This document shows positions 2,650-25,245 of a DNA stretch of 25,245 nt, piece after piece. Position 1 is the first letter of the stretch. Each line of letters begins with the position of its first letter. A program made the translations under genes and the position numbers. The DNA is taken from assembly GCA_002011125.2 (NCBI GenBank), contig MTMF02000003.1, forward strand, positions 1 through 25,245, given 5' to 3'. This DNA comes from Candidatus Hydrothermarchaeum profundi (GTDB lineage Archaea > Hydrothermarchaeota > Hydrothermarchaeia > Hydrothermarchaeales > Hydrothermarchaeaceae). The notes beneath the pieces were generated by a model. It saw nothing but the letters and a program-made list of their open reading frames with translations. It was not told the origin of the DNA and searched no databases.

Positions 2650-3021
2650 CTACCCTAGAAAATAGAAGTAGTTCCCTGGGGTTGCTTTAAGCTCCCTAGC
2701 TTTTTCCTCCAGCTCCTTTAGTGTTTCCCTGCACCAGTGAAGCAATGCCCTGTCGAAGTTGTTGATGTTTCTTTGGTTCATCAGCTCCCTTATCTCCTTC
2801 GAGTTCCAGCTGCTCTCCTTCCTCTCCTCGTAAACCACTATCATATCGTTCTTTCTATTCTTCTCTTTTTTGGCAAGCCCATAAACTCTCATAACAGCTT
2901 GAATTCTGTCTATCGTTCCGTGCAACAGCTTGATCTCTTCTGCAAGCTCATAGTGCAGTCTCTTGTCTTTATCAACAATCTGAAGGAACTCTTCAAGGTT
3001 ATAAACAGTCTCACCCATCAT
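2650..3021 (-). CDS. Hypothetical protein (123 aa)
   Basis: Start overlaps the upstream RHH stop codon. Charged composition typical of a real protein. No recognisable motif. Confidence 0.7.
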   Translation of the reverse strand: MMGETVYNLEEFLQIVDKDKRLHYELAEEIKLLHGTIDRIQAVMRVYGLAKKEKNRKNDMIVVYEERKESSWNSKEIRELMNQRNINNFDRALLHWCRETLKELEEKARELKATPGNYFYFLG

Positions 3022-3305
3022 TGGGAGGCCCCCTTCGTGGTAGCTTCGAGTTTAGTTCCAGCTTCTTGGCTTGCAAGCTCTATTCCTTCAACGACTTTCT
3101 TATCAAAGTTTTCTGGACTCTCTGATGTCTCTTCATTGCCTAAAACCGCAATCAACCCGTACTTTCTAGCTTCCCTCTCTATGTACTCGCTCACAGCATC
3201 CCTCACAACTTCCTGCTTAGATAACTTCCATTTCCTTCTCCTCAGCTCTTCCAACAGTTCAACCGTCTCCTCCCTCAAGCTCACGATCAGCTGCTTGCTT
3301 CCCAT
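3018..3305 (-). CDS. Ribbon-helix-helix (CopG-like) regulator
   Basis: KQLIVSLREETVELLEELRRRKWKLSKQEVVRDAVSEYIERE fits beta-alpha-alpha RHH. Strong RBS GGAGGTGA upstream. Confidence 0.8.
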   Translation of the reverse strand: MGSKQLIVSLREETVELLEELRRRKWKLSKQEVVRDAVSEYIEREARKYGLIAVLGNEETSESPENFDKKVVEGIELASQEAGTKLEATTKGASQ

Positions 3306-3463: not shown

Positions 3464-3757
3464 ATGTGTGCAAATGAACTCAATAAACTCTATGATGAAG
3501 AAATTCTGAGAGTTATTGAGGGCTTAAGTCATCCTATCAGGTTGAGCATTTACAATTTGTTAGCGGAGAAGGGTGAGATGTTTACCGGCGATATTTTCAA
3601 GCTGATAAAGGGGGAATTTGGAGTAAGCTCTCACCAAACTCTTTTGAATCATCTGAATGTGATGCAGATATCTGGAATTGTGGAGTTGGAGAGGGTTAAG
3701 AATAGGTACAAGGCTAAACTGAAGAAGATGATTGGGATTGAAGTTAAGGAGATTTAG
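3464..3757 (+). CDS. ArsR-family winged-HTH transcriptional regulator (candidate repressor)
   Basis: LSHPIRLSIYNLL...SHQTLLNHLNVMQISGIVELER is an ArsR-type signature. Confidence 0.82.
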   Translation: MCANELNKLYDEEILRVIEGLSHPIRLSIYNLLAEKGEMFTGDIFKLIKGEFGVSSHQTLLNHLNVMQISGIVELERVKNRYKAKLKKMIGIEVKEI

Positions 3758-3988: not shown

Positions 3989-4567
3989 TTGATGAAACCT
4001 TTTCAGATATGTGTAGATACAAACATTTGGATTGATTATATTGAAAAAAGAACCGCTCCCGAGAAATCTAGAGAGTTAATTCAAATGTTGACCGACGTAC
4101 ACTCACCACATAAAATAATTGTACCAAAAATACTGTACATTGAAATCGTATCTAAGCTCATTGATAACAGGAAGGAGAAATATTTGATCACAAAGCAAGG
4201 ATATTCCTCTATTGATTTCAAAAGTCCTGAAGGCAAGAAGATAAAATTCAATTTTAAGCTACCAAAAAAGGAGATGAGAGAGATCAAAGACATTTTGTTA
4301 GAATTCGAAAATTCTGATAAAATAGAGATAGTTTCGCCAGGAATTGACCTAGGTAGGGCTGAATTCCTTGTAAAAGAGGGATTTGAACTTATGGATTCTT
4401 TAATAATTGTTCAGATTGCAGATGGAAAGGCCGACTATTTTGTCACAAGAGATAGAGTGGCCAGGAGAATCAATGAAATTAGTCTAAAATGGGTTAAATT
4501 TAAGGCAACCACTGTTAGGGGAATGATTAAGTTATTAAGAAGACTCGATAACAATTTGGTAGGTTAA
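3989..4567 (+). CDS. PIN-domain (VapC-like) ribonuclease
   Basis: VDTNIWID, central IEI, C-terminal LMDSLI...YFVTRD: the four acidic PIN positions. Confidence 0.85.
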   Translation: MMKPFQICVDTNIWIDYIEKRTAPEKSRELIQMLTDVHSPHKIIVPKILYIEIVSKLIDNRKEKYLITKQGYSSIDFKSPEGKKIKFNFKLPKKEMREIKDILLEFENSDKIEIVSPGIDLGRAEFLVKEGFELMDSLIIVQIADGKADYFVTRDRVARRINEISLKWVKFKATTVRGMIKLLRRLDNNLVG

Positions 4568-4656
4568 AATCACAAAAGCTATATTTCATCAAAATTTAGA
4601 CCTAAATTAATTTAACTTCGGTTTAAAGAACTAAAAAGGGTTATTGAGTCTACGAC

Positions 4657-4905
4657 TTACCTATATACAATCTCAGCCAAAGATTTCAGTAACTCTTTTT
4701 GATCATCTATATCCAGCATCGAGATTATTTCCAGCAGCCAGTCGAGGAAGTCCTCTTTAGGCATCTCTCTTGTTATGCCTTTCTCTCTAAGCACTATAGA
4801 ATCGTGAAGCTTTCTCATGAACATTTCCCGCTTGAAGGCTGTGTAATTTAGCTCTAAAAGTTCATCTCTACCATCTAACTCTATTTTAAGCTTGATCCAA
4901 CTCAT
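4657..4905 (-). CDS. Hypothetical protein (82 aa; ORF track start 4920)
   Basis: ATG at 4905 sits about 22 nt below a minus-strand TTTAAATA at 4927-4934 (leaderless geometry). Confidence 0.6.
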   Translation of the reverse strand: MSWIKLKIELDGRDELLELNYTAFKREMFMRKLHDSIVLREKGITREMPKEDFLDWLLEIISMLDIDDQKELLKSLAEIVYR

Positions 4906-4999
4906 ACGATTTGGTTGCAAAAAGGGTATTTAAAAGTTGGAGTGTGATATGAAAGTGTGAGATCGATTTTCAAATTCAGAAATTCTTCTACAATGGTAC

Positions 5000-6109
5000 T
5001 TAAAAAGACGAGGGTTCTTCCTCGCTTGTAAAATTTTTTAAGACTTTAAAATATCTGGTTTTTTTGAGTCTTTTGGTAATAAAATCCTTTAAAAAACTCT
5101 CTTCAAAAGCGTTGTGAAAAGCTTTTTCTTCACATTTGAATACAAATGCATTGTGAATTGCCCTCTTATAAAATGTCCCTTGTTTAGAGTTATCCAATGC
5201 ATTTTTTCTTTCTTTAAGCGATTTTCCATTGCAAATTGGACAGTTACATTCTTTCAGCAACTTGTACTCTTTAAATTTCCTTCTACCGTTTTTAGGTGAG
5301 ATAAATCTATCTCCTATACTTGGTAATTGAAGCGCACCGTATGCAGCTTTCATTCTCCAACTCATAGAATCGACAGAGTCAACACCTAAACTAAACATTA
5401 GGTGCATTGTCGAAACGCTACCGACTCCAAAAACATGAAGGAATGTGTCGGGAAACTCTTCCCTTACAATCGATATTACTTTTGCCATAAATTCTATTGT
5501 ATTTATACCGTTCAACTCCGAAAGTACTGAAGTTTTCATGTACCTTACTATTGGAACTAAACTTCCTATCCCTACCATTTTAGGGTAGGTAATTTCCTTT
5601 ATCTCTTTACAAGCTTTTTTAACGTCATCTATTGTATAACCGTGAATTACGGGCATTAAGGCGATATTATGGGAATTTTCAAGCATGAATTCTGTATTAC
5701 TTATAGTGTTTTTCCATCTCTCAAATCTGCTTTCTAAGTCCATAGGATTAAATGGGTGGTCCAAAACTACACCAATATCCGGTTCAGCTCTTTTATAGAT
5801 ATCAAGTAATAGCTCAGGAGTTACAGGAATGTTCTTTTTCATAAGCTGGAAGCCTCCAGAATCCATCATAACAATTCCGTTTACATTCAGATACTCATGA
5901 ATGGAATCGATTGACATTCTCTTTTCAATTATTTCATAAGCGTTTACCAACACTGTTTCTACCTTAAAATGATCCCATGGGTGGGGTTTGCTTTTAAGTA
6001 AGCATCCCAACCATAAAACAGGAGTTTTTACTTCTTTTCCGTTAATTTCTAAGATCCCTAAACGGGCATTTGTGCTAGAATCCTCTTCTATAACATTAAA
6101 CTTTACCAT
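5000..6109 (-). CDS. tRNA-guanine transglycosylase (TGT)-family paralogue, catalytic domain only; candidate DNA 7-deazaguanine transglycosylase (DpdA-like role)
   Basis: ARLG...KTP, catalytic DSGGFQ, LDHP, PVIHG, GIGSLVP, LHVFGVG, catalytic DSVDS, Zn site CNCPIC...HN. 369 aa with no C-terminal PUA domain. Confidence 0.9.
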   Translation of the reverse strand: MVKFNVIEEDSSTNARLGILEINGKEVKTPVLWLGCLLKSKPHPWDHFKVETVLVNAYEIIEKRMSIDSIHEYLNVNGIVMMDSGGFQLMKKNIPVTPELLLDIYKRAEPDIGVVLDHPFNPMDLESRFERWKNTISNTEFMLENSHNIALMPVIHGYTIDDVKKACKEIKEITYPKMVGIGSLVPIVRYMKTSVLSELNGINTIEFMAKVISIVREEFPDTFLHVFGVGSVSTMHLMFSLGVDSVDSMSWRMKAAYGALQLPSIGDRFISPKNGRRKFKEYKLLKECNCPICNGKSLKERKNALDNSKQGTFYKRAIHNAFVFKCEEKAFHNAFEESFLKDFITKRLKKTRYFKVLKNFTSEEEPSSF

Positions 6110-6632
6110 CTAATACCTCCTTTATTGTTTTTAAAAGCATAGGTAACTTGTATAAGTTATAGGGTACTGTGATAGGGGAAAACAAACCCTCAGAGGCAGC
6201 TAAAATAATTTTTTTGTGATGATTTGGTGCAAAAACGATAAAATGCTTATGATGAGATATAGCTTTGCTCAAGAACCTTTTCAACCTCTCAACGAATACC
6301 TCTCTACCACCTTCTCCCAACATCTCAGGTGGAAATTCATAATGAGCTGCAGGGTATTTTTCCTCCCACTCTCTGGGCACTACGACTAATGGTTCTCCAA
6401 TGATATATTGCTGGACAAATTCATCTAGGCCATGCTTTACCAACAATCCAATAGTTTTTTTGTGCATAAACGAGGCTGAATATGGTTTATGTTGACTACA
6501 ACCCATTAGTAATGCAATCATTTTTTCACTCTTCCATTCTTCCATAACAGAAGAATAAAAAGAGACTACATCAGGGAGAAAAAACATCTCCTCTCCCCCT
6601 CTCAGAATTGTACGTGAACCCAAGTTTCTCAA
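6096..6632 (-). CDS. Stand-alone archaeosine synthase ArcS core-like protein (DUF5591)
   Basis: LLMGCSQHKPYSASFMH matches the ArcS PCSxxKPYSxSxSH motif. EPLVVVPREWEEKYPAAHYEFP matches the SPLGxVPRELExxYPAxxYD motif. Overlaps the TGT start by 14 nt. Confidence 0.82.
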   Translation of the reverse strand: MRNLGSRTILRGGEEMFFLPDVVSFYSSVMEEWKSEKMIALLMGCSQHKPYSASFMHKKTIGLLVKHGLDEFVQQYIIGEPLVVVPREWEEKYPAAHYEFPPEMLGEGGREVFVERLKRFLSKAISHHKHFIVFAPNHHKKIILAASEGLFSPITVPYNLYKLPMLLKTIKEVLDGKV

Positions 6633-6638
6633 CCTCCT

Positions 6639-9600
6639 TCAAATTGTCAATGAAACTCCTAAATTCAGGTAACCATCCTTTACGAGCTTAATCACTATTT
6701 CATAAACTTCGGAATTATCGAATTTGGATTTCTCTTTTACTTTATTAACAAGCTGATCTATCCAAATAACCTTGGACTTCTTGCACATTTCAACAACACT
6801 TTCTAAAACAACCAATTCTTTCTCACCTAAAATAATTTTAATCTTTTTATAAAATTCATTCTTTATTGATTCTTTTTCGCTCTCGATTTCACTTAGTTTA
6901 GCAGTGGAAGTGATGAATTCTGTATCAACTATTTTGAATCTTATTACATCAATTTTATCCAATAATTTTGAGACATCCAATTCACTATGTTTTTTATATA
7001 CTATATCTATCAACTGACTTAGATCCCGCAGATACTCTAGAGTTTTTTGAGTATATTCGTCCCAAATTTCGTTTAACTCGTCTATCAAGTCCTCCGAACG
7101 AATCATAATACCATCTAAATATTTAATCAAATCTAGTTCTTTCTCAAGCGATTCCAATAATCTATTTGGGTCAAAATCATCGTAATTGTAGGCCATAGAG
7201 GGTTTTGCAGATAAACTTTCTACTAACTCTTCTAAGTTTACTTTAATATTTTCAATTTTTGGCTTGCAACTTTCCAGATCCAGAAATTCTTCTCCTTTTT
7301 CGATGAACTTTTTAGTTCTTTTAATCTTCTCATGCACCGAGTTTTCTTTCCTAACAAGCCTATCCAAATAGTTAACTAATGTTTCTACAGCAATTAAATT
7401 TCTTTCGATTGGTTCCAAAGATCTGTCGATAATTTTTACCAAATCCATTATAGATACATTCTTTATTTTCTCTTCTCTCAAGCCAGGCATAAGATTTTTT
7501 GAATAATTCCTTAGGTATTTTAACAATTCACGTGAAAAATTTAGTTGTTCATCTATTTCCTTGGATTTGACAGTTAAAGACACTCTTTTAAATTTCTGTT
7601 CAATACCTTTAAATTTTTCATTAATATTTTTTAAGACGTCGTATTTTCTGTCAAATTTATCAAGAAACTCTTTGGCCAAGACATTGATTAAAAATAATTT
7701 TACATTAAAATATGGAAATTTATTATCTTCTTTACTGAAATAAAAGTCATCGTAGATTTCATCTTTGTATCTATCCAAGATATCTCTTAGCTCTTCAAAA
7801 TTTGAACAATTCTCAACACTTTTGATCTCAGAGATGAGGAAAGTTAACTCTCTACTATCCTTGACATCTTGTTTGTATATTTCTATTTTTAGCCACTTTT
7901 TAAAATACTTACAAATGATTTCCAGAACATCTTCGAAATCTTTCTTTCTTTCATCTATTTCATTTATTATTTCTTCACATTCAGCTTTTGCAATGGATAT
8001 ATTTTTTAGCCATGTACTTGAAAAATAGTTTGCTAACTTATAAATCAAAAATGTTTTCTGAAGTCTAACACTCTCGTCTGTTAGAGTTTCAATATAATCA
8101 TATTGTCTAGAAATAAAATCCCAAAACTCGTCTAATACTATAAGTCGTTCATCTCGCTGTTTAACCACATAACAAAAACCATATTTTTTAAACTTGCTGT
8201 CTAGGGCTGCCTTTCTGATTTTATTAAATTCAACATCCAATTTTTTCTTCAAACTAGTTTCATTTGCGATTTCAATTTGTTTTTTCTCAACTAGGATTTT
8301 CCCCTTATGTTCCAAAACATTCAGATAAAGATCTGAAAGAATCCTTTTATTAGAACTTAAAATTATGAAATAATTCTTTAAATTTTCTTCACTTATTTTC
8401 CCCTTTTCAGATTTGATGATCTTCATAATCCTATTTTCTACTGGGTGTTCCTTGATCTCATAGCCTTGTACGGGATCACCGATCAAAAACCCATTGTTCT
8501 CTAGATCTTTAGAGAGGCTTTTCAATTTATCAACAGATTCTATATCCGGTATAAAACCTATCCTAGAGCCGAATTTAATGAATTTCTTTAACTCATCTCT
8601 ATTTAGATAAAAGGCATTTTCTGGGGTTAATTTACTCTCCGAAAAATTTATATAAAATTTTAGAGCATCAGCAAGTTCTTTATGGCTGGCAGCAAAATTA
8701 AGAGTTGGATCTGTTATCACGAGTCCCAATTTTTCTTGTTCTTTAAGCCAGTCTCTTAACTTTCTTTCAAGGTTGGTATCTTCTTGGATAATTTTATGTG
8801 ATTCTCTGGAGAACATTTCCTTATCTATATACTCATAATGTTTCAAATAAGCTCTGTACATCACAATTATCTTCTTCAGCAAAGTTGGGTGTAGTTTAAT
8901 AAGCATGATTATATTCTCTCCATTTTTACCTAACTCTTTGTTCTCTATCTTTTCTTCTGCTTTAAATGTTAATTCCCCAGTGTATGTAGCCAATATTAAA
9001 TGTACAGGAGCGTTAAAGCTACTTAATACGCTATGAATTTCATCGATGTCTTGCCCCTTAAGATCTCCATTTGCAAAGTAAAAAAGCGTATTAATTGTAG
9101 CATCATCTAAGATAATCTTAACAAAACTGATATTTCTTTGCTCTTCCAGCCTCTCAATTCTAAAAATTTTTGATTCCTCTAATACAATTAAAAGAGCTTT
9201 AGGGAGAAATTCTTGAGATTGATCAGCTAATTTTCTTGTAACGTCCCTCCATAACCTCATTCTTAGTTCTCGGTCCGTAATAAATTCTAATTCCTTTGGA
9301 ACTGGTGTTGGGAATATTTGTGAAAGTAGTTGCTCACTTGCAAGATAATATACTTCTGTATCGTCACACAATTTTAGCAATTTATTTCTAAATTCTACTA
9401 TTTGATCTTCACCTATTCCTTCGAAAAAAGAGGAAATACTGTCATCATCTGTCGGTAAATAGATTTGCGGATGTATTTTGTCTCCAAAAATGTGGGGGAA
9501 TGTAATTTTATCCAAGAAATTATCCATATTCTCAACATAGCTGCCAACTCTAAGCACTTCTGTATCTTTTTCTTTAAATATATAATCGGATAATCTAGCT

Positions 9601-10865
9601 TTAATGTCATTGGAGTCCAGTTCTTCCTTCAACCTTCTTACTTTTAACACAGCTTTAATAATACCAAATCTTTCCAAACTCTCATTTATCTTTGAGATAA
9701 TATTGCCAATATCGTCGAACCCTAATCTCTCCTCAATTTGTGAAGGAGAAAGAGGCCCGTATTCTCCAATCAGTAGCCTAAAAACTTCAACACATTTCCT
9801 ACCCATCTCTATGTTTCTTTGATCTTCAAGTGCATTCAACATTCTATCTAGGTTATCATTTTCAATACAAGTTGTAGAACCACCATACACTGAGACAGTC
9901 TCCCCTCTCATATATTCTAAAAATATATCATAGTCAATAATTTTAACTCTTGAATCATCCACTTTTGAGCTTCCTAATAATCGGGTGAGTAAACTTACCA
10001 TATTTCCTAAGTTTCCGTGCGCCACTCTTACTATCCCATTAAAAATGCCCAGACTCTCTATAGGCAATTTTTTTGGTAAATTGTAATTATATGAATACTT
10101 TAACAACTCCCAAAGAAATTGTATCCCCTCTATTTTCTTGATTCCAGGTAGCTCAATAATACCTATCCTTCTACCTAAACCTCCAAAAATTAAAGATGTC
10201 TCTTCACTGACTTGTAGTTTATAGAACGCATCTGGAGTTGCTGCAAGTATGAAGTGTAAACTTCCTTCAAACTCTCCGTTTTCAAAAATTGGTTTAAATT
10301 GCCCATTAATTGTCTCTTTGATGCCAGAAATTACTTTTTTCAAAATATCCATATTTAAAAGTAGCTCCTCGAATTCATCAATAAAAACGATTATTTTTTT
10401 GGTGTTTATGGTTAATTTCCTAAGTGCATTCTCAACAAATTCATTAGGACTACTGAATTCAAAAGGTTCAGGAATAAGTTGGGGGTCGGATTCAGCTTTG
10501 ATACTAGCAAACAAGGCTACCAAAAATTGGAGTGAAGAGGAAGGTGTAGAGTTTATCAATTTCTTGACATCGTAAACATCAGTAAAAGCATTTGAAAGAG
10601 TTGAGGCCGATACAAGAATCGGGAGGTATCCCTTAGTCTCAGCAAATGGCTTGATACATCTTTCAAATGTATCAGTTTTCCCTTCACCCCACTCACCAAT
10701 AATGACACGAATGGTAGGTTTTCTCTCTGTTGTTACTACCGAGTCGATATATTGTTCTAATTTTTTTCTAACGGTTAACCTACTTTCGATTGTGATATTT
10801 CCGAACCCTTCAAAAACAACTCCCGCATCACTTGGCAGTCGTGAAAAAACATCTGTAAACTCCAT
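6639..10865 (-). CDS. Large (1408 aa) P-loop ATPase with long helical/coiled-coil region and wHTH-like segments
   Basis: Walker A GEWGEGKT, Walker B IVFIDEFEE, sensor-like ILAATP. Heptad-rich C-terminal third. Terminal EVYEIVIKLVKDGYL is wHTH-like. Confidence 0.8.
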   Translation of the reverse strand: MEFTDVFSRLPSDAGVVFEGFGNITIESRLTVRKKLEQYIDSVVTTERKPTIRVIIGEWGEGKTDTFERCIKPFAETKGYLPILVSASTLSNAFTDVYDVKKLINSTPSSSLQFLVALFASIKAESDPQLIPEPFEFSSPNEFVENALRKLTINTKKIIVFIDEFEELLLNMDILKKVISGIKETINGQFKPIFENGEFEGSLHFILAATPDAFYKLQVSEETSLIFGGLGRRIGIIELPGIKKIEGIQFLWELLKYSYNYNLPKKLPIESLGIFNGIVRVAHGNLGNMVSLLTRLLGSSKVDDSRVKIIDYDIFLEYMRGETVSVYGGSTTCIENDNLDRMLNALEDQRNIEMGRKCVEVFRLLIGEYGPLSPSQIEERLGFDDIGNIISKINESLERFGIIKAVLKVRRLKEELDSNDIKARLSDYIFKEKDTEVLRVGSYVENMDNFLDKITFPHIFGDKIHPQIYLPTDDDSISSFFEGIGEDQIVEFRNKLLKLCDDTEVYYLASEQLLSQIFPTPVPKELEFITDRELRMRLWRDVTRKLADQSQEFLPKALLIVLEESKIFRIERLEEQRNISFVKIILDDATINTLFYFANGDLKGQDIDEIHSVLSSFNAPVHLILATYTGELTFKAEEKIENKELGKNGENIIMLIKLHPTLLKKIIVMYRAYLKHYEYIDKEMFSRESHKIIQEDTNLERKLRDWLKEQEKLGLVITDPTLNFAASHKELADALKFYINFSESKLTPENAFYLNRDELKKFIKFGSRIGFIPDIESVDKLKSLSKDLENNGFLIGDPVQGYEIKEHPVENRIMKIIKSEKGKISEENLKNYFIILSSNKRILSDLYLNVLEHKGKILVEKKQIEIANETSLKKKLDVEFNKIRKAALDSKFKKYGFCYVVKQRDERLIVLDEFWDFISRQYDYIETLTDESVRLQKTFLIYKLANYFSSTWLKNISIAKAECEEIINEIDERKKDFEDVLEIICKYFKKWLKIEIYKQDVKDSRELTFLISEIKSVENCSNFEELRDILDRYKDEIYDDFYFSKEDNKFPYFNVKLFLINVLAKEFLDKFDRKYDVLKNINEKFKGIEQKFKRVSLTVKSKEIDEQLNFSRELLKYLRNYSKNLMPGLREEKIKNVSIMDLVKIIDRSLEPIERNLIAVETLVNYLDRLVRKENSVHEKIKRTKKFIEKGEEFLDLESCKPKIENIKVNLEELVESLSAKPSMAYNYDDFDPNRLLESLEKELDLIKYLDGIMIRSEDLIDELNEIWDEYTQKTLEYLRDLSQLIDIVYKKHSELDVSKLLDKIDVIRFKIVDTEFITSTAKLSEIESEKESIKNEFYKKIKIILGEKELVVLESVVEMCKKSKVIWIDQLVNKVKEKSKFDNSEVYEIVIKLVKDGYLNLGVSLTI

Positions 10866-10873
10866 ATTACCAC

Positions 10874-12553
10874 CTATAAATTGTCAACAACTTTTGTTTC
10901 GCCAATTGTTGGTTTGACCTTCCTTTCCTCATAATTAACTTCAACTACCAAAGGAAAAGGAACTGTCACCATCTGTCCCGTAACAATTAATTCGCCAGTA
11001 TTTAAAGTTGTAAGTCTCATAGATAGCGATTGGGGCAGTCCCCCAGTTACACTCCTAACGAAACTAACATCTTCTGGTGAAACTCGATGAATAAAAAAAG
11101 TATTGCACATTGAAAGAACTATTCTGTCGACAAACGAAGGTCTTTGAGTGATTAGGCATAAAGAGAGGCCAAATTTCCTTCCTTGTGTAGCAATGGCCGA
11201 TAGTTTCGAATGCGCAAGACTAGATCCTATTGGATAAGATTTATCTGGGCAGAAATTTTGAGCCTCCTCGATAATGAACAACAAATACTTCTGTGACCCC
11301 TCTAATTTATATTTGGTGAATTTATTGAACAAAATTGTCGTAAGATACATCATTACAAACTGTTTAGTTTTCAAATCCACCCCAGGTGCTCCTTCGGCTG
11401 AAAAGTCAAATACTGCTACACCTCTGTTATTTGTGATGTCATCAATGAAATCCTCACCCTTCATTGGCGAAGAAGTTGAGAGTAATTTAAATACTCCCTC
11501 TAATTTAAAAAATTCTTTAAGCTGCCTTCTTATTGCACCAATTGTGGCTGTGTGATAATTAAACGGTTTTTTATCAAGATGGTCTACGTGTCTTATCAGT
11601 TCCTCTATATCATTACATATAAGATCGTGGATAGAGCTGTAGCCTAACGCTTCCATGTATCCAAACAAATCTATTAATGCACTGATTTGCTGTTCAGCCC
11701 CTTCTGTAGTGCCTCTCAAGAAAGTTACTATGATTTCTGCTAACTCAGCATAGCTGAGCAAATCAATGTCAATGCCTATAGGATGGGTGAATTCGTTTCT
11801 GAATTCTGGTTTTTCAAAATAGATATTTGGAAAAACAAATCTTTGAACCCACCCGGATTTTATCCATTCTTTGTTTTCTGACTTACTTTCATTAGCGTAT
11901 CTCACGTAATCTAAATAATCACCATGTGCATCTATAATTACCATAGGATACGAAACGTGCTCAAAATCATTTTTGGGAATATTCATGAGTTTTTCGATTA
12001 AATATCCGGTATTGAATGATTTGCCGCTTCCTGTAACTCCAAAAACAGCCAAGTGCATTGGGATATTTTCGACATCTAGAGGGATAGGTAGGCTTCCATA
12101 TCCACTTAGAGAACCAAATTTAATTATTCCCCTATACATTCCATTTGAAAGTCTTTTTTCCCGCGAGACCCCAAAGAGATCTTCTTCGTAGTATTCATAC
12201 AATTCGGGATCTACTTTGACAACAACATCCCCAGGCCAAGGAGGATATTGAATTTCTCTTCGAGGAACTTCTATAAGTAATTCCAGTTTACATATCTCGT
12301 ATTGTCTAGCAATCGCTTCAGGTATAGGTCTTCCTTCCCTTCTAGCCTCGCTCCAAGGATCTCCCTCTGTATAGAAGGCATTATAAGGTAGGATCTGGGA
12401 AACTCTACACAAAATTTTTCTCCCTCTTGAATTGATAATCAACAACATACCCTCTCTTATTTTTCCTTTTTCGGCCTCTTTTAAGAGTTGGCATGCCGCC
12501 TCTCTTGTTGTTGCACCGCTTAAGATTATTCCAATTTCATCTTTCTCAACCAT
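10874..12553 (-). CDS. herA: HerA-family helicase/translocase
   Basis: N-terminal HAS-barrel-like region, HLAVFGVTGSGKS, IIDAHGDY, Walker B IIEEAQNF, GRKFG...ITQRPS, LNTGE. Confidence 0.9.
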   Translation of the reverse strand: MVEKDEIGIILSGATTREAACQLLKEAEKGKIREGMLLIINSRGRKILCRVSQILPYNAFYTEGDPWSEARREGRPIPEAIARQYEICKLELLIEVPRREIQYPPWPGDVVVKVDPELYEYYEEDLFGVSREKRLSNGMYRGIIKFGSLSGYGSLPIPLDVENIPMHLAVFGVTGSGKSFNTGYLIEKLMNIPKNDFEHVSYPMVIIDAHGDYLDYVRYANESKSENKEWIKSGWVQRFVFPNIYFEKPEFRNEFTHPIGIDIDLLSYAELAEIIVTFLRGTTEGAEQQISALIDLFGYMEALGYSSIHDLICNDIEELIRHVDHLDKKPFNYHTATIGAIRRQLKEFFKLEGVFKLLSTSSPMKGEDFIDDITNNRGVAVFDFSAEGAPGVDLKTKQFVMMYLTTILFNKFTKYKLEGSQKYLLFIIEEAQNFCPDKSYPIGSSLAHSKLSAIATQGRKFGLSLCLITQRPSFVDRIVLSMCNTFFIHRVSPEDVSFVRSVTGGLPQSLSMRLTTLNTGELIVTGQMVTVPFPLVVEVNYEERKVKPTIGETKVVDNL

Positions 12554-12558
12554 TTAAT

Positions 12559-13666
12559 TCACCTCATTCTACTGGCTACAAGTTGATCGAAAGGATCGAT
12601 ACTCCTACTTTTCGTCAGTATTTCTTCATAAAGAATTTCTGCAGCCCCCCTCCTGATATTACATTTCTCATGAGCAAGTAAAACTGGAAGGGGATCTTGT
12701 CCAGGGTAAGTCCAATAATCAAGCGTATTAACGACTTTCTCAACTGTTGAATTAACTAAATCTAAATTTTCTCCAGGTGGAAAGCTGAAAGGGATATCAA
12801 TTCTTAATATTTTAGATCTTATATCCCTCTCATAGAAAAAGGAAATGATATATATATCGTTTTCATAATATTTTGAAAATGGTATTCCTCTCATTTCCTC
12901 GCTTAAGTCGATCCATTGAGTATATATTGAGCCAGCGGGGAAATCTCTCCTTAATTTTGTAAATAAGAGGAGCATTAAGTGTTGATCGGTAGGAAACGTC
13001 TCTGCTTCCTTAATACCAAAATTGTTAGTTATATAATGAATAAAAAATCTATCACGTACTCTTTTTACACATCCGATAACTAACGAATTTTTTAAAGATA
13101 CTCTAAAAGCTTCACACCTGAAGTTTATGTAATCCTCATCATCGGAAAATGGAAAAGGGGGATCTACAATTGGACCATCTATAAAAATAACCGATTTAAA
13201 ACCCTTACTTCCCCAATTTAGAATGGCTTTTGATTCTGCAATCAACATCCTCTCCTCTGCTGTTAGTTTAATACTTTGATTGTTATGTTCATTGATTTCA
13301 TCTATATCTGCCCAAAAAACTTCAACTTGCGGATTAGATTTTAATCCGTTTTTAAATAAAATCCTAGTTACACTAAAAAAAAGGTACCACTTTCCTCCTA
13401 TCCCTCCGACGAGTTGTTGACTGCCGTCTATTCCTACTGCAAACTTTTCAACTTTGGAGTGGTCAATAGACGGATTTATTGAAAAAAAAGATTTTGATTT
13501 TAGATTGTCTAAAACCTTGTCAGTTAGTTTTTCTTAGCCTCCTCAACTCTCTCTGGGCTTTCTCTCCTTTACTTTGAGCAGACTCGATTAGTTTAATTAG
13601 TGTTTCAGGTTCTGTTTTGTTAAATTCTATTCTTTTAAGTAACTCTTTTAATTCTTCATAATTCAT
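12559..13666 (-). pseudogene. nurA: NurA-family nuclease interrupted by one frameshift near 13523-13533 (about 368 aa if repaired)
   Basis: The frame of ORF 12559..13248 is open upstream to 13533 and contains AVGIDGS, E..M...E, IFIDGPI and PLPVLLAHEKC. The N-terminus MNYEELKELLKRIEF...RELRRLRK starts at ATG 13666 in another frame and stops at 13520-13522. Confidence 0.82.
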
Positions 13667-13748
13667 TGTAAGTTAAATAGCAAGTTTAATACTTCAATGT
13701 TTCGATTCTCATATAATTACAACAATACTCACACAAAAAATTGAATCC

Positions 13749-14072
13749 ATGGTGAGAGAGATACTTTTTAAACCGAAGTCAATCGCTCTTAGTTTTTGTT
13801 ACTTGTATTAAATAAATACAGGGGTTAGTATAGGTCCCAGAGTACTGGCTGAGGAACTAGGGCACAAAAATTTGAAAAGATTAGGTGGTAGATTTTACTA
13901 CAAATTTCAAGATTTGTTACTTTGGGGTATCTTAGAGAAAGAAGGAAAGAGATATAAGGTGATAGAATTAGCCAAACAAGCATTAGATCCTTACGATAAA
14001 GAGGGGGCTAAAGAAGCCAATATCCTCGAAAAGCGAATCAAGAAGGGGGGCGAGAGTGAAATTGGGTACTAG
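13749..14072 (+). pseudogene. Degraded winged-helix protein gene
   Basis: ATG 13749, in-frame TAA at 13809-13811, then VLAEELGHKN...GGRFYYKFQDLLLWGILEKEGKRYKVIELAK (wHTH-like). Confidence 0.5.
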
Positions 14073-14408
14073 AAGACGGTTAAGGTACACTTTCCCACGT
14101 CAAGGATAAAAATACTATTTCCACGACTCAAGGAATTCAAGAAGCACGAATATAAGTTACTCTCAGTAGATAGCTATATAATCTTGCATTTCAGAAAAAG
14201 GTGCGACTCTTAATTTTTTATTATCTGCTATTTTTATTTTTCTAAAATTCTATATATAAATTCAACTATATAAACTCTCACGCTAATGACGAAGATTTTT
14301 GTCGCCATGCCGAACCACTATAACTACGATTGAACGAGTTCTATAACACATTTTAGATAAAATTCAATTTCAAGAGTTCAAATTACAAAATCGAGACAAT
14401 GTATCTTT

Positions 14409-14756
14409 TCATGAAAATATTTTAAATTTTAATTTTTTTATTTGTTCTTCCAAGAAATTCTCAAATAGAGATGACTTATATCTCACTTTTCCGAACTCCT
14501 CCCACTCAGATACAACGGAAGATGCATAACATCGCTGAAGATTCGAGAAGGATAGACAATAATGGCCTTATCGTTCCTAAGGGATTGAAACAAAGCATTG
14601 AGCCTTTGTAGCTTCGGCTGATCGTTAGTAAAGAAACCTCCCCTCCTTACCAATAACCAGTTGAAGGAGAGATTTTACACCCTTTCTTATCTTGAACCAT
14701 CCTTGAGTTGTTGCAACGAACCTGATTTTCAGGCTTCTGAGCTTCTTGATGTTCAG
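14409..14756 (-). pseudogene. Frameshifted 3' remnant of a second copy of the FtsK/HerA-type ATPase gene
   Basis: Translates to LNIKKLRSLKIRFVATTQGWFKIRKGV/SFNWLLVRRGGFFTNDQPKLQRLNALFQSLRND...SDVMHLPLY/EEFGKVRYKS, collinear with about 15870-16160. Identical blocks: 14680-14711 = 16083-16114 and 14517-14541 = 15921-15945. Confidence 0.88.
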
Positions 14757-14844
14757 ATTTTATCGATTCAAAAGACATGTAGAGACATCTTAAAGAAGTG
14801 CAGATGTTTTGACAAGATATTTTAAAAGCAAAATGGAAAAATAG

Positions 14845-15444
14845 ATGAGGATTGAAATCCAGTTTAAACTTTCAAAGGGTGTCAAAATGCAAGTAAAATA
14901 TGCCAGATTTAAATCGGAGGAGGATTTATTAAAATCAGTTCTACAATCTCTACCCTTCGATGTCTATCCAAGAGTTTCAGCAATAGCCGGAAAGAAGATT
15001 AATCCTGATATAGACATATTGCAAATCAACAGGGTTTCTGATTACCATAGATTAATAGGTTATGAATTGAAATTGATGAAGTTTGACAAAAGGAGTAAAG
15101 GATTGAGTTGGGAGGCTTTTTATAAGGGGATCGGTCAAGCATTGTTATACCTAAAAAACGGTGTTCATCGTGTGTTTCTGATTTTAGGATTTCATGAGAA
15201 TATCCCAAACGATAAAATGATTGAGAACTTTTGCAATTGGTTATGGGATAAAAAAGAGTTAATAAGCCAAGTACTCGGGAATCACATCTCCATCGGCATG
15301 TGTCTGTACGAAGGGGGTTCAATTTATGAGATAATAGAAGCAAAACTTGATTTTCACCCTTCAGACGATGAGACTAAATTCCTTACAGAAGCGCTATTAA
15401 AAGGAAGATTTACTTTTGATAAAAAGATAAAAAGACCGTATTAA
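14845..15444 (+). CDS. PD-(D/E)XK restriction-endonuclease-like protein
   Basis: NPDIDIL...IGYELK...KGIGQALLY: D...ExK plus GQxxxY motif. Confidence 0.72.
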   Translation: MRIEIQFKLSKGVKMQVKYARFKSEEDLLKSVLQSLPFDVYPRVSAIAGKKINPDIDILQINRVSDYHRLIGYELKLMKFDKRSKGLSWEAFYKGIGQALLYLKNGVHRVFLILGFHENIPNDKMIENFCNWLWDKKELISQVLGNHISIGMCLYEGGSIYEIIEAKLDFHPSDDETKFLTEALLKGRFTFDKKIKRPY

Positions 15445-15814
15445 CATCAATCAAATTTCCTAATTTTCTTGATACTCTCGTACATTTGTGAAGCTGTATA
15501 TCATCACATTGCTCACTCCAAAAACTTTTATGGATTTAACTAAAGCTTTTTCAAATCTATTTCTTATATACTCTCCTCCCACATCTCCTCCTTTCCTAAG
15601 CATTACCACTGCGACAAACTTCTCCCCAGTTTACTTTCGCACCTTATCTTACTATTTCGCCCTCATCCGGAACATTTCTAATGGTTTCCTATTGAAATTA
15701 AGAGCATAAAAAATTACAGTAATCTAATAATTGTTGAAGAAACAATGTGTTAGAAAAAGCCTTTTTCAGCCTCATTTGAAAAATATTCTTGACTGACACT
15801 TTTATCAAAAATGT

Positions 15815-16708
15815 TTAAATTTTATTTTTCAAATCTAAGAAATTATTTCCTCTAGTGAACTTTTCAAAAGCAAACGATCTGTATCTTACTCTCCCAAATT
15901 CCTCTCCATTTGGATAGAGAGGAAGATGCATAACATCGCTGAAGACTCTTGAAGGATAAACGATTACTGCTTCGTCATTCTTCAAAGACTGAAAAAGTGA
16001 ATTGAACCTTTGTAGTTTTGGCTGATCGTTGGAGAAGTAGCCCCCTCTCCTGACAAGCAACCAATTGAATGATGATCTAACTCCCTTTCTTATCTTGAAC
16101 CATCCTTGAGTTGTAGCTACAAATCTAACTTTCAAGCTGCGAAGCTTCTCGATGTTTAGCTGAATTATAGATCCAACTTTGCCTACTCCCTCCTCGCCAT
16201 GTCCTTGTGCTGGAGCAACGACGTGGAACTCGTCGAAGAAAATTGAGAGTGGTGTAACATAATCAAGGTGGGCATCATGAGCTAGATATATGAGGGATTT
16301 GAAGATGGCTGAGAAGATTTTGGCGTAAGTTTCTGGATCGTGTATGTATGGATACAAGGAGAGAACGTTGATTTTATTGGGGTCTAGATTTAGCCAGATC
16401 AGTCGGGGATCGTCGAACTGGCTTATATGGATGTCATGTAATTCGTCACAGCTTCTCTCGTTCAGTAAGATCGAAATCTCAAATGTTTCTGGGATCATGA
16501 CGTTGAGGGGTTTGAATAGAGCGAGAGTCAGAAATTCGGAGGATTTTCCTGTATCAAACCAGACAATCGTCTCGTTTGAGGAGTGAGTTAACCCATCAAG
16601 AATCCAGTAGAGTCCTTGGGTCTTCCCACTGCCGGTAATTCCTATCTCCAGGATGTGCTGTCCTGGAATTTTCAGGCATTCCCTCTCAAATTTCTCCTGC
16701 CAGCCCAT
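15815..16708 (-). CDS. FtsK/HerA-superfamily ATPase, putative genome packaging/extrusion ATPase (297 aa; ORF track start 16726)
   Basis: HILEIGITGSGKT, IFFDEFH, KLRS...ATTQ. Last gene of the membrane-protein operon. RBS GGGAGG before ATG 16708. Confidence 0.8.
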   Translation of the reverse strand: MGWQEKFERECLKIPGQHILEIGITGSGKTQGLYWILDGLTHSSNETIVWFDTGKSSEFLTLALFKPLNVMIPETFEISILLNERSCDELHDIHISQFDDPRLIWLNLDPNKINVLSLYPYIHDPETYAKIFSAIFKSLIYLAHDAHLDYVTPLSIFFDEFHVVAPAQGHGEEGVGKVGSIIQLNIEKLRSLKVRFVATTQGWFKIRKGVRSSFNWLLVRRGGYFSNDQPKLQRFNSLFQSLKNDEAVIVYPSRVFSDVMHLPLYPNGEEFGRVRYRSFAFEKFTRGNNFLDLKNKI

Positions 16709-16730
16709 TTTTCCTCCCTGATTCAACAGA

Positions 16731-23968: not shown

Positions 23969-24187
23969 TCAAAGAAGTCCCTTCTCCCTGAAATGCTTCT
24001 CTAGAGCAATGTTTACCAAATCTGAAAGTCGATAGTTGTTTAGTCGGATGATGTCATAGAGTTCCTTCTCGATGTGGACTGTGGTCATAATTCTGTTCTT
24101 CTTTTCTAATTTGAGAATTCTCTTCATTGCGATTGAGTTTGTAAGTTTGGTTTCAGGTAGTGGTTTGATTTTATCGTCTTTTTCCAT
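23969..24187 (-). CDS. Ribbon-helix-helix-like DNA-binding protein
   Basis: IMTTVHIEKELYDIIR...LSDLVNIALEKHF. Overlaps the integrase 3' end and has RBS GGAGGG. Confidence 0.65.
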   Translation of the reverse strand: MEKDDKIKPLPETKLTNSIAMKRILKLEKKNRIMTTVHIEKELYDIIRLNNYRLSDLVNIALEKHFREKGLL

Positions 24188-25237
24188 AATCGCCCTCCAA
24201 CCTTCTTACAATTTCAAGGAGTTTAGGCCTACAATCCATAGGTATGAGTTCAACACTTCCCATAAAAGCCATGTATTGATTGTAAATCCTTTGGGGTGTA
24301 GCCCGATCGTAGAATTCCCTTGAGATCCCAGAGATCTCATGAGCCATGATATACTTTCGGAGCTCATCGTCCATTCTTTGCTCAAGATCCCACTTGGTGA
24401 ATTGCTCGAAGAAATATCTGCCGAACTGGAAGTTTATCCTTTCTCCTTCCTCTTTGGTATTAATATTCAGCCTTGCCAAAATCCTTCCTATTCTGTCGTT
24501 GTCAAAAAGTCTCATCCACCTAGGGTTTTCTCGGTAGGCGTTCAGGTAAACCTCTAGCAAAGGCTTGATCTCTCGATGAATTGGAATGTAATGGTGATAT
24601 ATAGCTCCAGAATGGGAAATCTTTGATTCAATCAGATCGAGGTAATCGCACGATCCATTGAACTTTATGTTTTCCTCTGTTATCTCATCAAACATCTCAC
24701 TCCTTAATCCAGTTGAGCATTTTAGCAACCACATAACCGAATATCTCAGCTTATCTAAGTTTTTGAGATCTGAGTTCAAGATTCTATTGAGAACTTCATG
24801 GACATCCTCAAGAGAAACATAGGGAGTTTTTGATTGCTTGGTTACATTCTTGAACTTGTTTCTCTTTAGGATTTCAATTATGCTATCATAGAGTTCGCTA
24901 TTCTGATAATCAACAGTCTTAAGATAGTCCATGAACTGCTTGGCAAGTTGTAACCTCTGATTTATTTCCCAAGCAGATAAATTATTTCCAGTCGTTTCCG
25001 ATTTCAAACTCCTTATATAGGCAACGAATTGATATATACCATGGGGTGAGAACTCAAATTTTAAAAGATCCCTAATGGTCTTCTTTGCCTTCAGAAACCG
25101 CATTTTGCTAACTTTTTCCTTCATTAGACTGAGCCACCTATCCGACTCTGCTTTTAAGTCGAATTGTGCTTTATTTTCCTCTCTTATATGAGCCCTTACA
25201 AGGCGGAGGTCGCCGGTTCGAATCCGGCCGAGCCCAT
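24171..25237 (-). CDS. int: Int(C): catalytic fragment of the split tyrosine integrase (internal ATG at 25124 gives 317 aa)
   Basis: TGLRSE (R), ESK (K), QFGR (H-x-x-R position), MAH, terminal FY. The frame is open from 25124 upstream through the whole att repeat. Confidence 0.88.
25192..25237 (+). repeat. att site on the partial-tRNA side, 46-bp core
   Basis: Identical to 9-54. Lacks the D-arm and the first bases of the anticodon stem. Confidence 0.96.
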
Positions 25238-25245
25238 CCTATTTT

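Follow-up and report, generated by a model that had tools for sequence, protein, structure and literature searches.

The window analysed in this study is a 25,245-nucleotide stretch of Candidatus Hydrothermarchaeum profundi (assembly GCA_002011125.2, contig MTMF02000003.1), and it forms the whole of contig C3 of the host genome (G000; 2.19 Mb, 19 contigs). The study concerns P0001, a protein of the tRNA-guanine transglycosylase (TGT) family encoded on the minus strand. Its gene is the last of five, in the order NurA-like nuclease, HerA, P0003, P0002 (DUF5591), and P0001; neighbouring genes overlap or are separated by no more than 8 nt. The sequence and the gene neighbourhood suggested that P0001 probably belongs to a hitherto unnamed DpdA-like subfamily, acts as a DNA-guanine transglycosylase, and is the marking half of a five-gene Dpd-like restriction-modification operon. 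The marking of DNA with 7-deazaguanines is itself already known; the subfamily and its set of partners are new.

P0001 matched the Pfam TGT family (PF01702) over residues 14–350 with an E of 8.4e-24 and 84.7 bits (cut-off 26.3). The general TGT model TIGR00449 of NCBIfam gave 75.5 bits, above the cut-off of 47.6, which places P0001 in the superfamily. The arcTGT-specific model TIGR00432 gave 103.6 bits, below its cut-off of 350. The closest solved structure by sequence was the archaeal TGT (arcTGT) of P. horikoshii (1iq8), with a phmmer E of 6.9e-23. In this alignment, MMDSGGF (D83), VVLDHP (D117), PVIHGYT (H156), IGSLVP (pocket), GVDSVDS (D247), and CNCPIC...HN (C288-x-C290-x2-C293 and H319) of P0001 lay opposite VDSGSF, FLDIP, ATIQGST, IGGVVP, GVDLFDS, and CSCPVC...HN, respectively, so that the His of P0001 stood at the Gln position of arcTGT. 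Conservation was counted over 263 aligned sequences (P0001 and 262 homologs with identities up to 71%), using only sequences with a residue at the column. D83 was kept in 246/246, D117 in 251/252, H156 in 256/258, and D247 in 253/256 sequences. The Zn ligands C288, C290, C293, and H319 were kept in 240/241, 242/242, 231/242, and 247/248, respectively. Judged from its sequence, the open reading frame (ORF) 5000–6109 is a true TGT-family gene whose product has the catalytic Asp residues and the Zn site.

The alignment covered residues 7–338 of the 582 residues of 1iq8. Because the match stops at residue 338, the C-terminal C1-C2-C3/PUA domains of arcTGT are absent from P0001. The AlphaFold model of P0001, built with 23 homologs, had a pLDDT of 91.7 and a pTM of 0.91, and only three short helices closed the chain after the Zn site. 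Foldseek placed arcTGT at the top, with TM-scores of 0.79 by query (TMq) and 0.52 by target (TMt), followed by eukaryotic and bacterial TGTs with TMq 0.71–0.77. An earlier note on this DNA, made from the letters alone, had described intact catalytic Asp motifs and Zn site, an arcTGT-like rather than bacterial GSLVP pocket, PVIHG in place of the Gln motif, and a protein end directly after the Zn domain. All four descriptions were borne out by the alignment, the residue counts, and the model; bacterial TGT (bTGT) rows read GIGGL---S at the pocket in a 58-row alignment.

The active site of Salmonella DpdA is described in PMC10164549. Asp95 is the acid/base, Asp256 is the nucleophile, Asp130 and His181 form hydrogen bonds with the base edge, and Phe99 and Leu236 sandwich the base. 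P0001 was related to this site through L108, a bacterial DpdA (bDpdA) that was aligned to the 7ui4 chain. GVAHG of Salmonella fell on GVIQG of L108, the same column as PVIHG of P0001. The residue printed as 201 in 7ui4 is His181 after an offset of 20 tag residues, and the same offset also fitted Asp95, Asp130, and Asp256. D83, F87, D117, H156, F227, and D247 of P0001 thus corresponded to Asp95, Phe99, Asp130, His181, Leu236, and Asp256. The GSLVP pocket corresponded to GGVVP of arcTGT and GGMVP of Salmonella DpdA.

In the 58-row alignment, the column of H156 held His in 26/26 rows of the P0001 family and in 5/5 rows of a distant group of TGTs termed type C. His was also found in 9g DpdA and two plasmid relatives, in STSV2 and SIRV8 DpdA, and in two other viral TGTs. 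Gln occupied the column in 13/13 tRNA TGTs (6/6 arcTGT and 7/7 bTGT), and also in L108, its Heimdall relative, and an odd Chloroflexota protein. This distribution suggested that His at this column is typical of DNA-acting TGTs. A "conserved histidine" of DpdA is mentioned in PMC6884629. The Gln-to-His change pointed out in the earlier note is no oddity of P0001; it is the His181 position of Salmonella DpdA, shared with the 9g, STSV2, and SIRV8 enzymes. DpdA was first recognised by arcTGT-like pocket residues, a Zn motif, and the absence of a PUA domain (PMC5699537), the same features that the earlier note had picked out in P0001. P0001 has the equivalents of the three Asp residues (D83, D117, and D247) and of the His (H156), and no PUA domain, consistent with DpdA in the wide sense.

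The phylogeny was investigated with 58 proteins, aligned by MAFFT L-INS-i and analysed by a careful maximum-likelihood search in IQ-TREE; support is given as ultrafast bootstrap/SH-aLRT. The rows comprised 26 members of the P0001 family, 5 type C proteins, 6 arcTGTs, 7 bTGTs, 4 ArcS N-domains, L108 and its Heimdall relative, 9g DpdA and its two plasmid relatives, STSV2 and SIRV8 DpdA, a TGT-domain protein of a Vibrio phage, the TGT of a Thermocrinis virus, and the odd Chloroflexota protein. L108 (323 bits on NF041059, the bacterial DpdA model) came from a sample of 301 genomes, 2 of which scored over the cut-off of that model. A tblastn search of plasmids with 9g DpdA returned 8 records, all with phage-plasmid-like DpdA and none with a dpd island. 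The arcTGT, bTGT, and ArcS N-domain rows formed a single clade (100/94), and the P0001 family lay outside it. The 26 family rows were grouped at 93/85. Type C (100/100), the bDpdA pair (100/99), and the 9g group (100/99) formed further clades. STSV2 and SIRV8 DpdA were sister to the P0001 family at just 66/12. Several rows had long branches, and the branching order among the non-tRNA TGT groups was not resolved in the deep part of the tree. The approximately unbiased (AU) test rejected a clade of the P0001 family with arcTGT (p 8.6e-8, log-likelihood difference 93.7), a p-value that is weakened because the group was named only after the tree had been inspected.

The earlier note had proposed this phylogeny as a check, with a place of P0001 within the housekeeping arcTGTs as the refuting outcome, and that outcome was not obtained. 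Its suggestion of a lineage independent of classical DpdA held in part. The P0001 family forms a clade separate from the bDpdA and 9g-type clades, with poorly supported deep branches such as the one that pairs it with STSV2 and SIRV8 DpdA (66/12).

The best characterised match of P0001, by sequence and by fold, is arcTGT. The neighbouring protein P0002 retains the C1 motif of ArcS, and an arcTGT without the PUA domain can still act on tRNA. P0001 could on these grounds be a transglycosylase of tRNA or another RNA, that is, a second split arcTGT making preQ0-tRNA, with P0002 as a second ArcS. However, G000 already encodes its own 635-aa arcTGT besides P0001, together with a split ArcS, whose N-domain has 292 aa and whose other part, of 308 aa, has the C1 motif (PCSAKKPYSRSKSH). 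P0001 is distinct from this housekeeping arcTGT. The genome also has a queC-queE-queD cluster for preQ0 synthesis. Among 38 genomes of the host phylum, only G000 had a full-length weak TGT match of the P0001 type (1/38). A second candidate, on the 8.7-kb contig G037:C168, was rejected because it was 26% identical and lacked all of the partner genes in its neighbourhood on that contig. All the other carrier genomes that were checked (5/5 archaeal and 5/5 bacterial) had kept an arcTGT or bTGT of the canonical kind, and no archaeosine-tRNA pathway is known in bacteria. The occurrence of the family in bacteria with their own bTGT, its place outside the tRNA-TGT clade with the rejection of a joint clade with arcTGT, and the His in place of the Gln of all 13 aligned tRNA TGTs also argue against a tRNA substrate. 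A role in tRNA is therefore highly improbable.

The P0001 family is sporadic across Archaea and Bacteria. A word-indexed search returned 406 proteins at E ≤ 0.001, and an exhaustive search of cluster representatives returned 759 homologs of P0001, 120 of them at E ≤ 1e-30. Named hosts were Aenigmarchaeota, Thermoplasmata, Methanobacterium, Odin- and Promethearchaeota, Methanosuratincola, and Bacillota. Paralogy, phylogeny, the sporadic distribution, and the gene neighbourhood support the reading, in line with the earlier note, that P0001 is an active preQ0-type base exchanger with a substrate other than tRNA, probably DNA.

G000 has a further, bacterial-type Tgt (C8:6827-7873, L001), which adjoins a QueA-like ORF. 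Contamination was considered for this gene and dropped, since 33/38 genomes of the phylum have one. These proteins scored 437–487 bits on PF01702 in frames of about 353–446 aa, and they occurred besides arcTGT and ArcS. Their presence across the phylum is a hint of a queuosine-type pathway in this archaeal lineage.

The partners of P0001 in the operon were examined. P0002 matched Pfam DUF5591 with an E of 3.2e-16, and the NCBIfam ArcS models covered its residues 14–138. Its motif C45-x3-K49-P-Y-x2-S54-x2-H57 is the C1 motif of ArcS as defined in PMC10516641; the residue preceding the Cys is Gly, not Pro. P0002 has the features of ArcS2, namely DUF5591 alone, C-x3-KPY-x2-S-x2-H, and a DpdA-type gene next to it. 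P0003 has a Walker A motif, W59-G-x-G-K-T64, and a Walker B motif, D163-E164. G60-x-G62-K63-T64, D163-E164, and R233 were kept among its relatives. No family was found for P0003 in Pfam, NCBIfam, PADLOC, or PHROGs, and three of its homologs gave only weak AAA_22 or nSTAND5 matches. The model of residues 1–560 had a pLDDT of 85.7, and its best matches in the PDB were Cdc6/Orc1 proteins (7jgr_G, 2.3e-7; 2qby_B, 3.5e-7; 2v1u_A, 5.0e-7; TMt 0.43–0.50). An Atlas lead (score 0.94) pointed to a cluster with BrxC_BrxD in 20% of its members. The HerA-type protein P0004 was 79% identical to its homolog in L006, one of the related loci described below.

The NurA-like gene of the window is frameshifted. 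One frameshift lies in an A-run near 13527–13535, and codons 1–46 are in the other frame. The remainder was 76% identical to residues 47–367 of the L006 protein, including the conserved GIDGS, and intact relatives have 363–396 aa. On Pfam NurA, the L006 homolog scored 28.6 bits (cut-off 21), and the window copy scored 14–17 bits, below the cut-off. Contigs of runs X3 and X4, from two other studies, showed 0 differences at the site, although contigs cannot show minor variants. Because these contigs agree across the site, the frameshift is not an assembly slip of this record. Besides the likely source sample, marine metagenome runs of other studies also yielded contigs that matched the stretch 12400–13800 without a single difference. 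The frameshift precludes a claim of defence for this particular genome. The sequence suggested that the restriction arm is probably off here and that the marking arm is intact in appearance.

The neighbourhood of P0001 relatives was compared over 35 genomic loci. Relatives of the NurA-like protein, HerA, and P0003 adjoined the TGT gene in 11/35 loci (L006, L009, L010, L012, L013, L015, L016, L019, L023, L024, and L030, where the contig ends within the P0003 match). Six of these are archaeal and five are bacterial according to their records. Together with the window, each of these 12 operons (12/12) had exactly one accessory gene. It was of the DUF5591 type in 7 operons (the window, L006, L013, L019, L023, L024, and L030), with a Pfam DUF5591 E of 1.4e-11 for the L023 protein. 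In the other 5 operons (L009, L010, L012, L015, and L016) it encoded a DUF6884-like protein of about 164 aa. This protein scored 27.3 bits on DUF6884, slightly below the cut-off of 30, and matched clear DUF6884 proteins of other loci with 95.7% probability (hhalign, E 8.9e-9). According to the Pfam paper, DUF6884 is a distant relative of YaaA/PF03883 with CxxxK and LS(D/A)xxG motifs. Both motifs were present in the accessory protein, and one member weakly matched PF03883, which is given as the family of DpdC in PMC12839542.

Genes for the supply of 7-deazaguanine adjoined the TGT gene in 6 loci. YhhQ/Vut_1, a preQ0 transporter family, was found in L015, L035, and L037, and QueC was found in L024, L032 (with QueE), and L036. 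The family thus clusters with genes of DNA metabolism and restriction and with 7-deazaguanine genes, consistent with DpdA in the wide sense. In five loci (L014, L018, L020, L029, and L032) the TGT gene stood beside an N6/N4 DNA methylase gene and a gene for a protein of about 384 aa without an assigned family; a DEAD/MZB helicase of 1000–1600 aa was present in three of them. L018 has two tandem TGT copies.

The type C loci (L035, L036, L037, L038, and L040) encode a distant TGT, 25–28% identical, with the motifs DNGAF and PVIHI. NurA (497 aa) and HerA are followed by the TGT, and DUF6884 and YhhQ lie upstream. The downstream neighbours in L035 encode a Mre11-like phosphoesterase and a Rad50/SbcC-like ATPase. 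The identity of type C with the published BREX-related capture (BRC) system was considered and rejected, as the scan of 6 ORFs of L035 turned up Mre11-like and Rad50-like proteins, among others, and no PglZ.

The Mre11-like and Rad50/SbcC-like genes beside NurA-HerA-TGT bear on another reading, in which P0001 works as an effector or in repair and leaves no self mark. In this capacity it would take out or swap guanine, or damaged guanine, in DNA that HerA-NurA then processes, so that base excision would form part of double-strand-break repair or of the attack on foreign DNA. HerA-NurA is a DNA end-resection machine in archaea (PMC3326311), and restriction glycosylases exist (PMC10273834). Against this stand the DUF5591-type or DUF6884-type (YaaA/DpdC-related) gene in 12/12 window-type operons and the preQ0 supply or uptake genes next to the TGT in 6 loci. 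These genes make sense in no other way than that a 7-deazaguanine is inserted and kept. G000, moreover, already has a canonical NurA and HerA pair elsewhere, with 98.5 and 162.7 bits, far above the island copies. An excising or repairing P0001 is an improbable explanation. A weak HerA-family match was also seen at G000:C9:1125830-1125997, within an unusually long open frame of 10,846 aa.

Marking could also serve the mobile element rather than the cell. P0001 would then modify the DNA of the element itself, or any DNA of the cell, as an anti-restriction coat in the manner of phage DpdA, and HerA, the NurA-like protein, and the ATPase would serve replication, partition, or transfer of the element. 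The operon does lie on an element bounded by tRNA-end repeats, and of its genes in this genome the one for the nuclease is disrupted, whereas those for marking look intact. Among viruses, the DpdA-ArcS2 pair of STSV1/2 is most closely related, and modification there has been proposed to shield the viral DNA (PMC6884629). However, the five-gene set moves as a unit over 11 loci in two domains, and some of the loci (L010, L023, and L024) are on contigs of 1–2.5 Mb. When IMG/VR was scanned by pattern with the family alignment, none of the 29 pattern stretches proved to be a relative, a result that, being pattern-based, is no proof of absence. A conserved pair of nuclease and translocase next to a modification enzyme is, in addition, the usual layout of restriction-modification. 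The coat was accordingly considered unlikely, and the restriction-modification operon was retained as the best explanation.

In the restriction-modification operon, preQ0 would be made by the products of the host genes queC, queD, and queE; the genes are present, and their use by this system is presumed. P0001 would then flip guanine out of double-stranded DNA and replace it with preQ0. D247 would attack C1', D83 would act as acid/base, H156 and D117 would read the base edge, and the GSLVP loop would fit the nitrile. These assignments follow the residue correspondence with Salmonella DpdA and arcTGT. By analogy, the ArcS2-like P0002 may turn the nitrile of dPreQ0 into an amidine-type product, 2'-deoxyarchaeosine or a related adduct. 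In euryarchaea, the canonical ArcS completes archaeosine only together with a radical-SAM partner, which makes the final product of the P0002 step uncertain. In the relatives bearing DUF6884, the product expected by analogy is the amide dADG. P0003, as a DNA-binding ATPase of the ORC/Cdc6-like AAA+ kind, would work with the HerA-type P0004 and the NurA-like nuclease to recognise, thread, and degrade incoming DNA without the mark, and the marked genome would be spared. Alternatively or additionally, P0003 may supply the ATPase function that assists the TGT on DNA, the part played by DpdB for DpdA. With the nuclease gene frameshifted in this genome, only the marking steps would be expected to operate.

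Several observations weigh against a Dpd-like restriction-modification operon. The bacterial DpdA model NF041059 gave P0001 47.3 bits, below the cut-off of 200, and the PADLOC DpdA model gave 46.5 bits. The family profile matched arcTGT with an E of 2.6e-37 and DpdA 7ui4 with an E of 5.8e-5, so that the nearest characterised protein is a tRNA enzyme, and 7ui4 was not among the 50 Foldseek matches listed for the P0001 model. The Gln of the bDpdA L108 at the H156 column means that the His is not universal among DNA enzymes. About 24 of the 35 loci, many of them on short contigs, were without the HerA/NurA/ATPase trio. The broken NurA-like gene of the host genome, the empty IMG/VR scan, the radical-SAM partner of canonical ArcS, and the lack of a ParB-like DpdB among the window ORFs scanned count on the same side. 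The case is built from homology and gene neighbourhood.

A wider proposal is put forward tentatively, at somewhat less than even chances. Scattered archaea and bacteria may mark the DNA of their own cellular genomes with 2'-deoxyarchaeosine, or with dADG where DUF6884 is present, by means of a sixth DpdA lineage, with the ORC-like ATPase, HerA, and NurA destroying unmarked DNA. In the literature found, 7-deazaguanines have been reported in the DNA of phages and archaeal viruses and from bacterial Dpd islands. If true, this would be a new class of 7-deazaguanine restriction-modification and the first to be put forward for Archaea, and archaeosine would for the first time serve as a self mark of the chromosome. 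A lineage of DNA-guanine transglycosylases would span Archaea and Bacteria, and archaeosine-type marks would be predicted in cellular DNA. DNA marks would further be tied to the HerA/NurA/ORC-like module, the defence role of which is poorly understood. The exchange of an ArcS2-like for a DpdC-like finishing enzyme in otherwise identical operons would offer a direct test of the mark that is made and read. The signature of H156, GSLVP, and no PUA domain would let annotators avoid the label "tRNA-guanine transglycosylase".

The features of the window are listed in the table. The window looks, from its sequence, like a 25-kb element integrated at a tRNA gene and bounded by repeats of the tRNA 3' end. 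ARAGORN found no whole tRNA in the window. The ORF 24171–25124 beside the right repeat had no family match in the profile scans and is therefore not called an integrase. The positions 14502–14756 are a partial copy, 74–83% identical, of 15906–16159 in the 3' part of ORF 15815–16726, at the island edge, and this copy may be a recombination scar from the arrival of the island. The RHH/CopG-like, HTH_20, and PIN ORFs that flank the operon are possibly toxin-antitoxin or regulator genes. ORF 2066–2644 had a weak match to a Holliday-junction-resolvase PHROG.

Table. Features of the 25,245-nucleotide window
Feature	Position	Strand	Description
tRNA gene, 3' part	1–53	plus	Left contig end; Rfam RF00005, 38.5 bits, model positions 20–71; cut at the 5' side
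RHH/CopG-like ORF	3018–3305	minus	Profile scan
HTH_20 ORF	3464–3757	plus	Profile scan
PIN-domain ORF	3989–4567	plus	Profile scan
Low-GC island	4000–15700		GC 0.29–0.38, about 0.42–0.44 in the rest of the element; holds the operon
P0001	5000–6109	minus	TGT-family enzyme, 369 aa; predicted DNA-guanine transglycosylase, DpdA-like subfamily; D83, D117, H156, G182-S-L-V-P186, D247, C288/C290/C293/H319
P0002	6096–6632	minus	Stand-alone DUF5591 protein, 178 aa (ArcS C1 core only, "ArcS2" type); last 14 bases overlap the TGT start
P0003	6639–10865	minus	1408 aa; N-terminal ORC/Cdc6-like AAA+ ATPase and winged-helix region, then a long helical C-terminal part
P0004	10874–12553	minus	HerA-type ATPase/translocase, 559 aa; Pfam DUF87 E 4.1e-24, 86.3 bits; PADLOC HerA PDLC04105, 114 bits
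NurA-like nuclease gene	12559–13666	minus	Frameshifted; the annotated ORF 12559–13248 (P0005, 229 aa) is the tail only
Direct repeat of bases 9–60	25192–25243	plus	96% identical; att-type copy of the tRNA 3' part in appearance

The operon was compared with known systems. In a phage collection of 50,697 records, the best matches to P0001 and P0002 were the adjacent STSV1/2 genes for DpdA (STSV2_15) and ArcS2 (STSV2_16). P0001 was 28% identical to STSV DpdA over residues 82–284, and P0002 was 37% identical to STSV2_16 over 96% of its length (tblastn). As in the window, the viral genes form an adjacent pair, the viral TGT has the His at the same position (PVIHA), and the viral ArcS2 shows the C-x3-KPY-x2-S-x2-H motif in a protein that consists of nothing but the DUF5591 core. 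Unlike P0001, the STSV TGT has 291 aa and no aligned CxCxxC Zn motif. The viral gene order is reversed, HerA, NurA, and ATPase neighbours are lacking, and the pair serves a virus. Viral ArcS2 is described as the DUF5591 core alone in PMC10516641. According to the same source, DpdA2 of Vibrio phage nt-1 produces dPreQ0 in E. coli plasmid DNA, and dG+ when combined with ArcS2, whereas the DNA of STSV2 carries dCDG and not dG+.

Bacterial DpdA (7ui4; PMC10164549) shares with P0001 the TGT fold, the three Asp residues, the His (His181 and H156), a pocket of the GG(M/V)VP type, the Zn site, and the lack of a PUA domain. The Dpd system also has ATPase and nuclease genes alongside, and its dependence on host-made preQ0 would by analogy be shared. 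Unlike bacterial DpdA, P0001 falls far short of the DpdA model (47 vs 200 bits) and belongs to a separate clade. No DpdD-K family was found in the window ORFs scanned with Pfam, NCBIfam, and PADLOC, the scan in which DpdB was also missing. The restriction part of Dpd consists of DpdD-K, whereas that of the window would putatively consist of the ORC-like ATPase, HerA, and the NurA-like protein. The nitrile enzyme is DpdC in Dpd and ArcS2-like in the window. The P0001-type system occurs in archaea and bacteria, unlike the bacterial Dpd system. The arcTGTs (1iq8/1j2b), closest by sequence and fold, share the catalytic Asp residues, the VVP-type pocket, and the Zn site, but have Gln for His, three extra C-terminal domains, and a clade of their own.

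BRC resembles the operon in combining a HerA-type translocase and an AAA+ ATPase of the ORC/Cdc6 type with a TGT homolog, for which a self-marking role through dPreQ0 has been proposed (PMC12839542). It is defined there by PglZ, DUF6079, STAND NTPase, DUF4007, and, in some loci, GNAT. Pfam detected none of these, whether in the operon or in those flanking ORFs that were scanned. The main text of PMC12839542 has 0 mentions of NurA, DUF5591, and DUF6884, and its supplementary tables may hold loci. In the Thermocrinis Great Boiling Spring virus (L104), a TGT annotated as "acetyltransferase/queosine tRNA-guanine transglycosylase" directly follows an acetyltransferase gene and groups with the Chloroflexota protein L101 (100/100), which recalls the GNAT-TGT pairing of BRC systems. 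No description of a NurA/HerA/ORC-like/TGT operon was found in the literature searched, and the supplements of PMC12839542, PMC10516641, and PMC6884629 may list such loci. None of the terms TGT, NurA, and deazaguanine appears in the reappraisal paper on Dnd (PMC10853773). The archaeal HerA-NurA complex resembles the window in that a HerA ATPase has a nuclease as its neighbour, of the NurA family in the complex and NurA-like, below the Pfam cut-off, in the window; it differs in that the canonical pair of the host is located elsewhere and the island copies are divergent.

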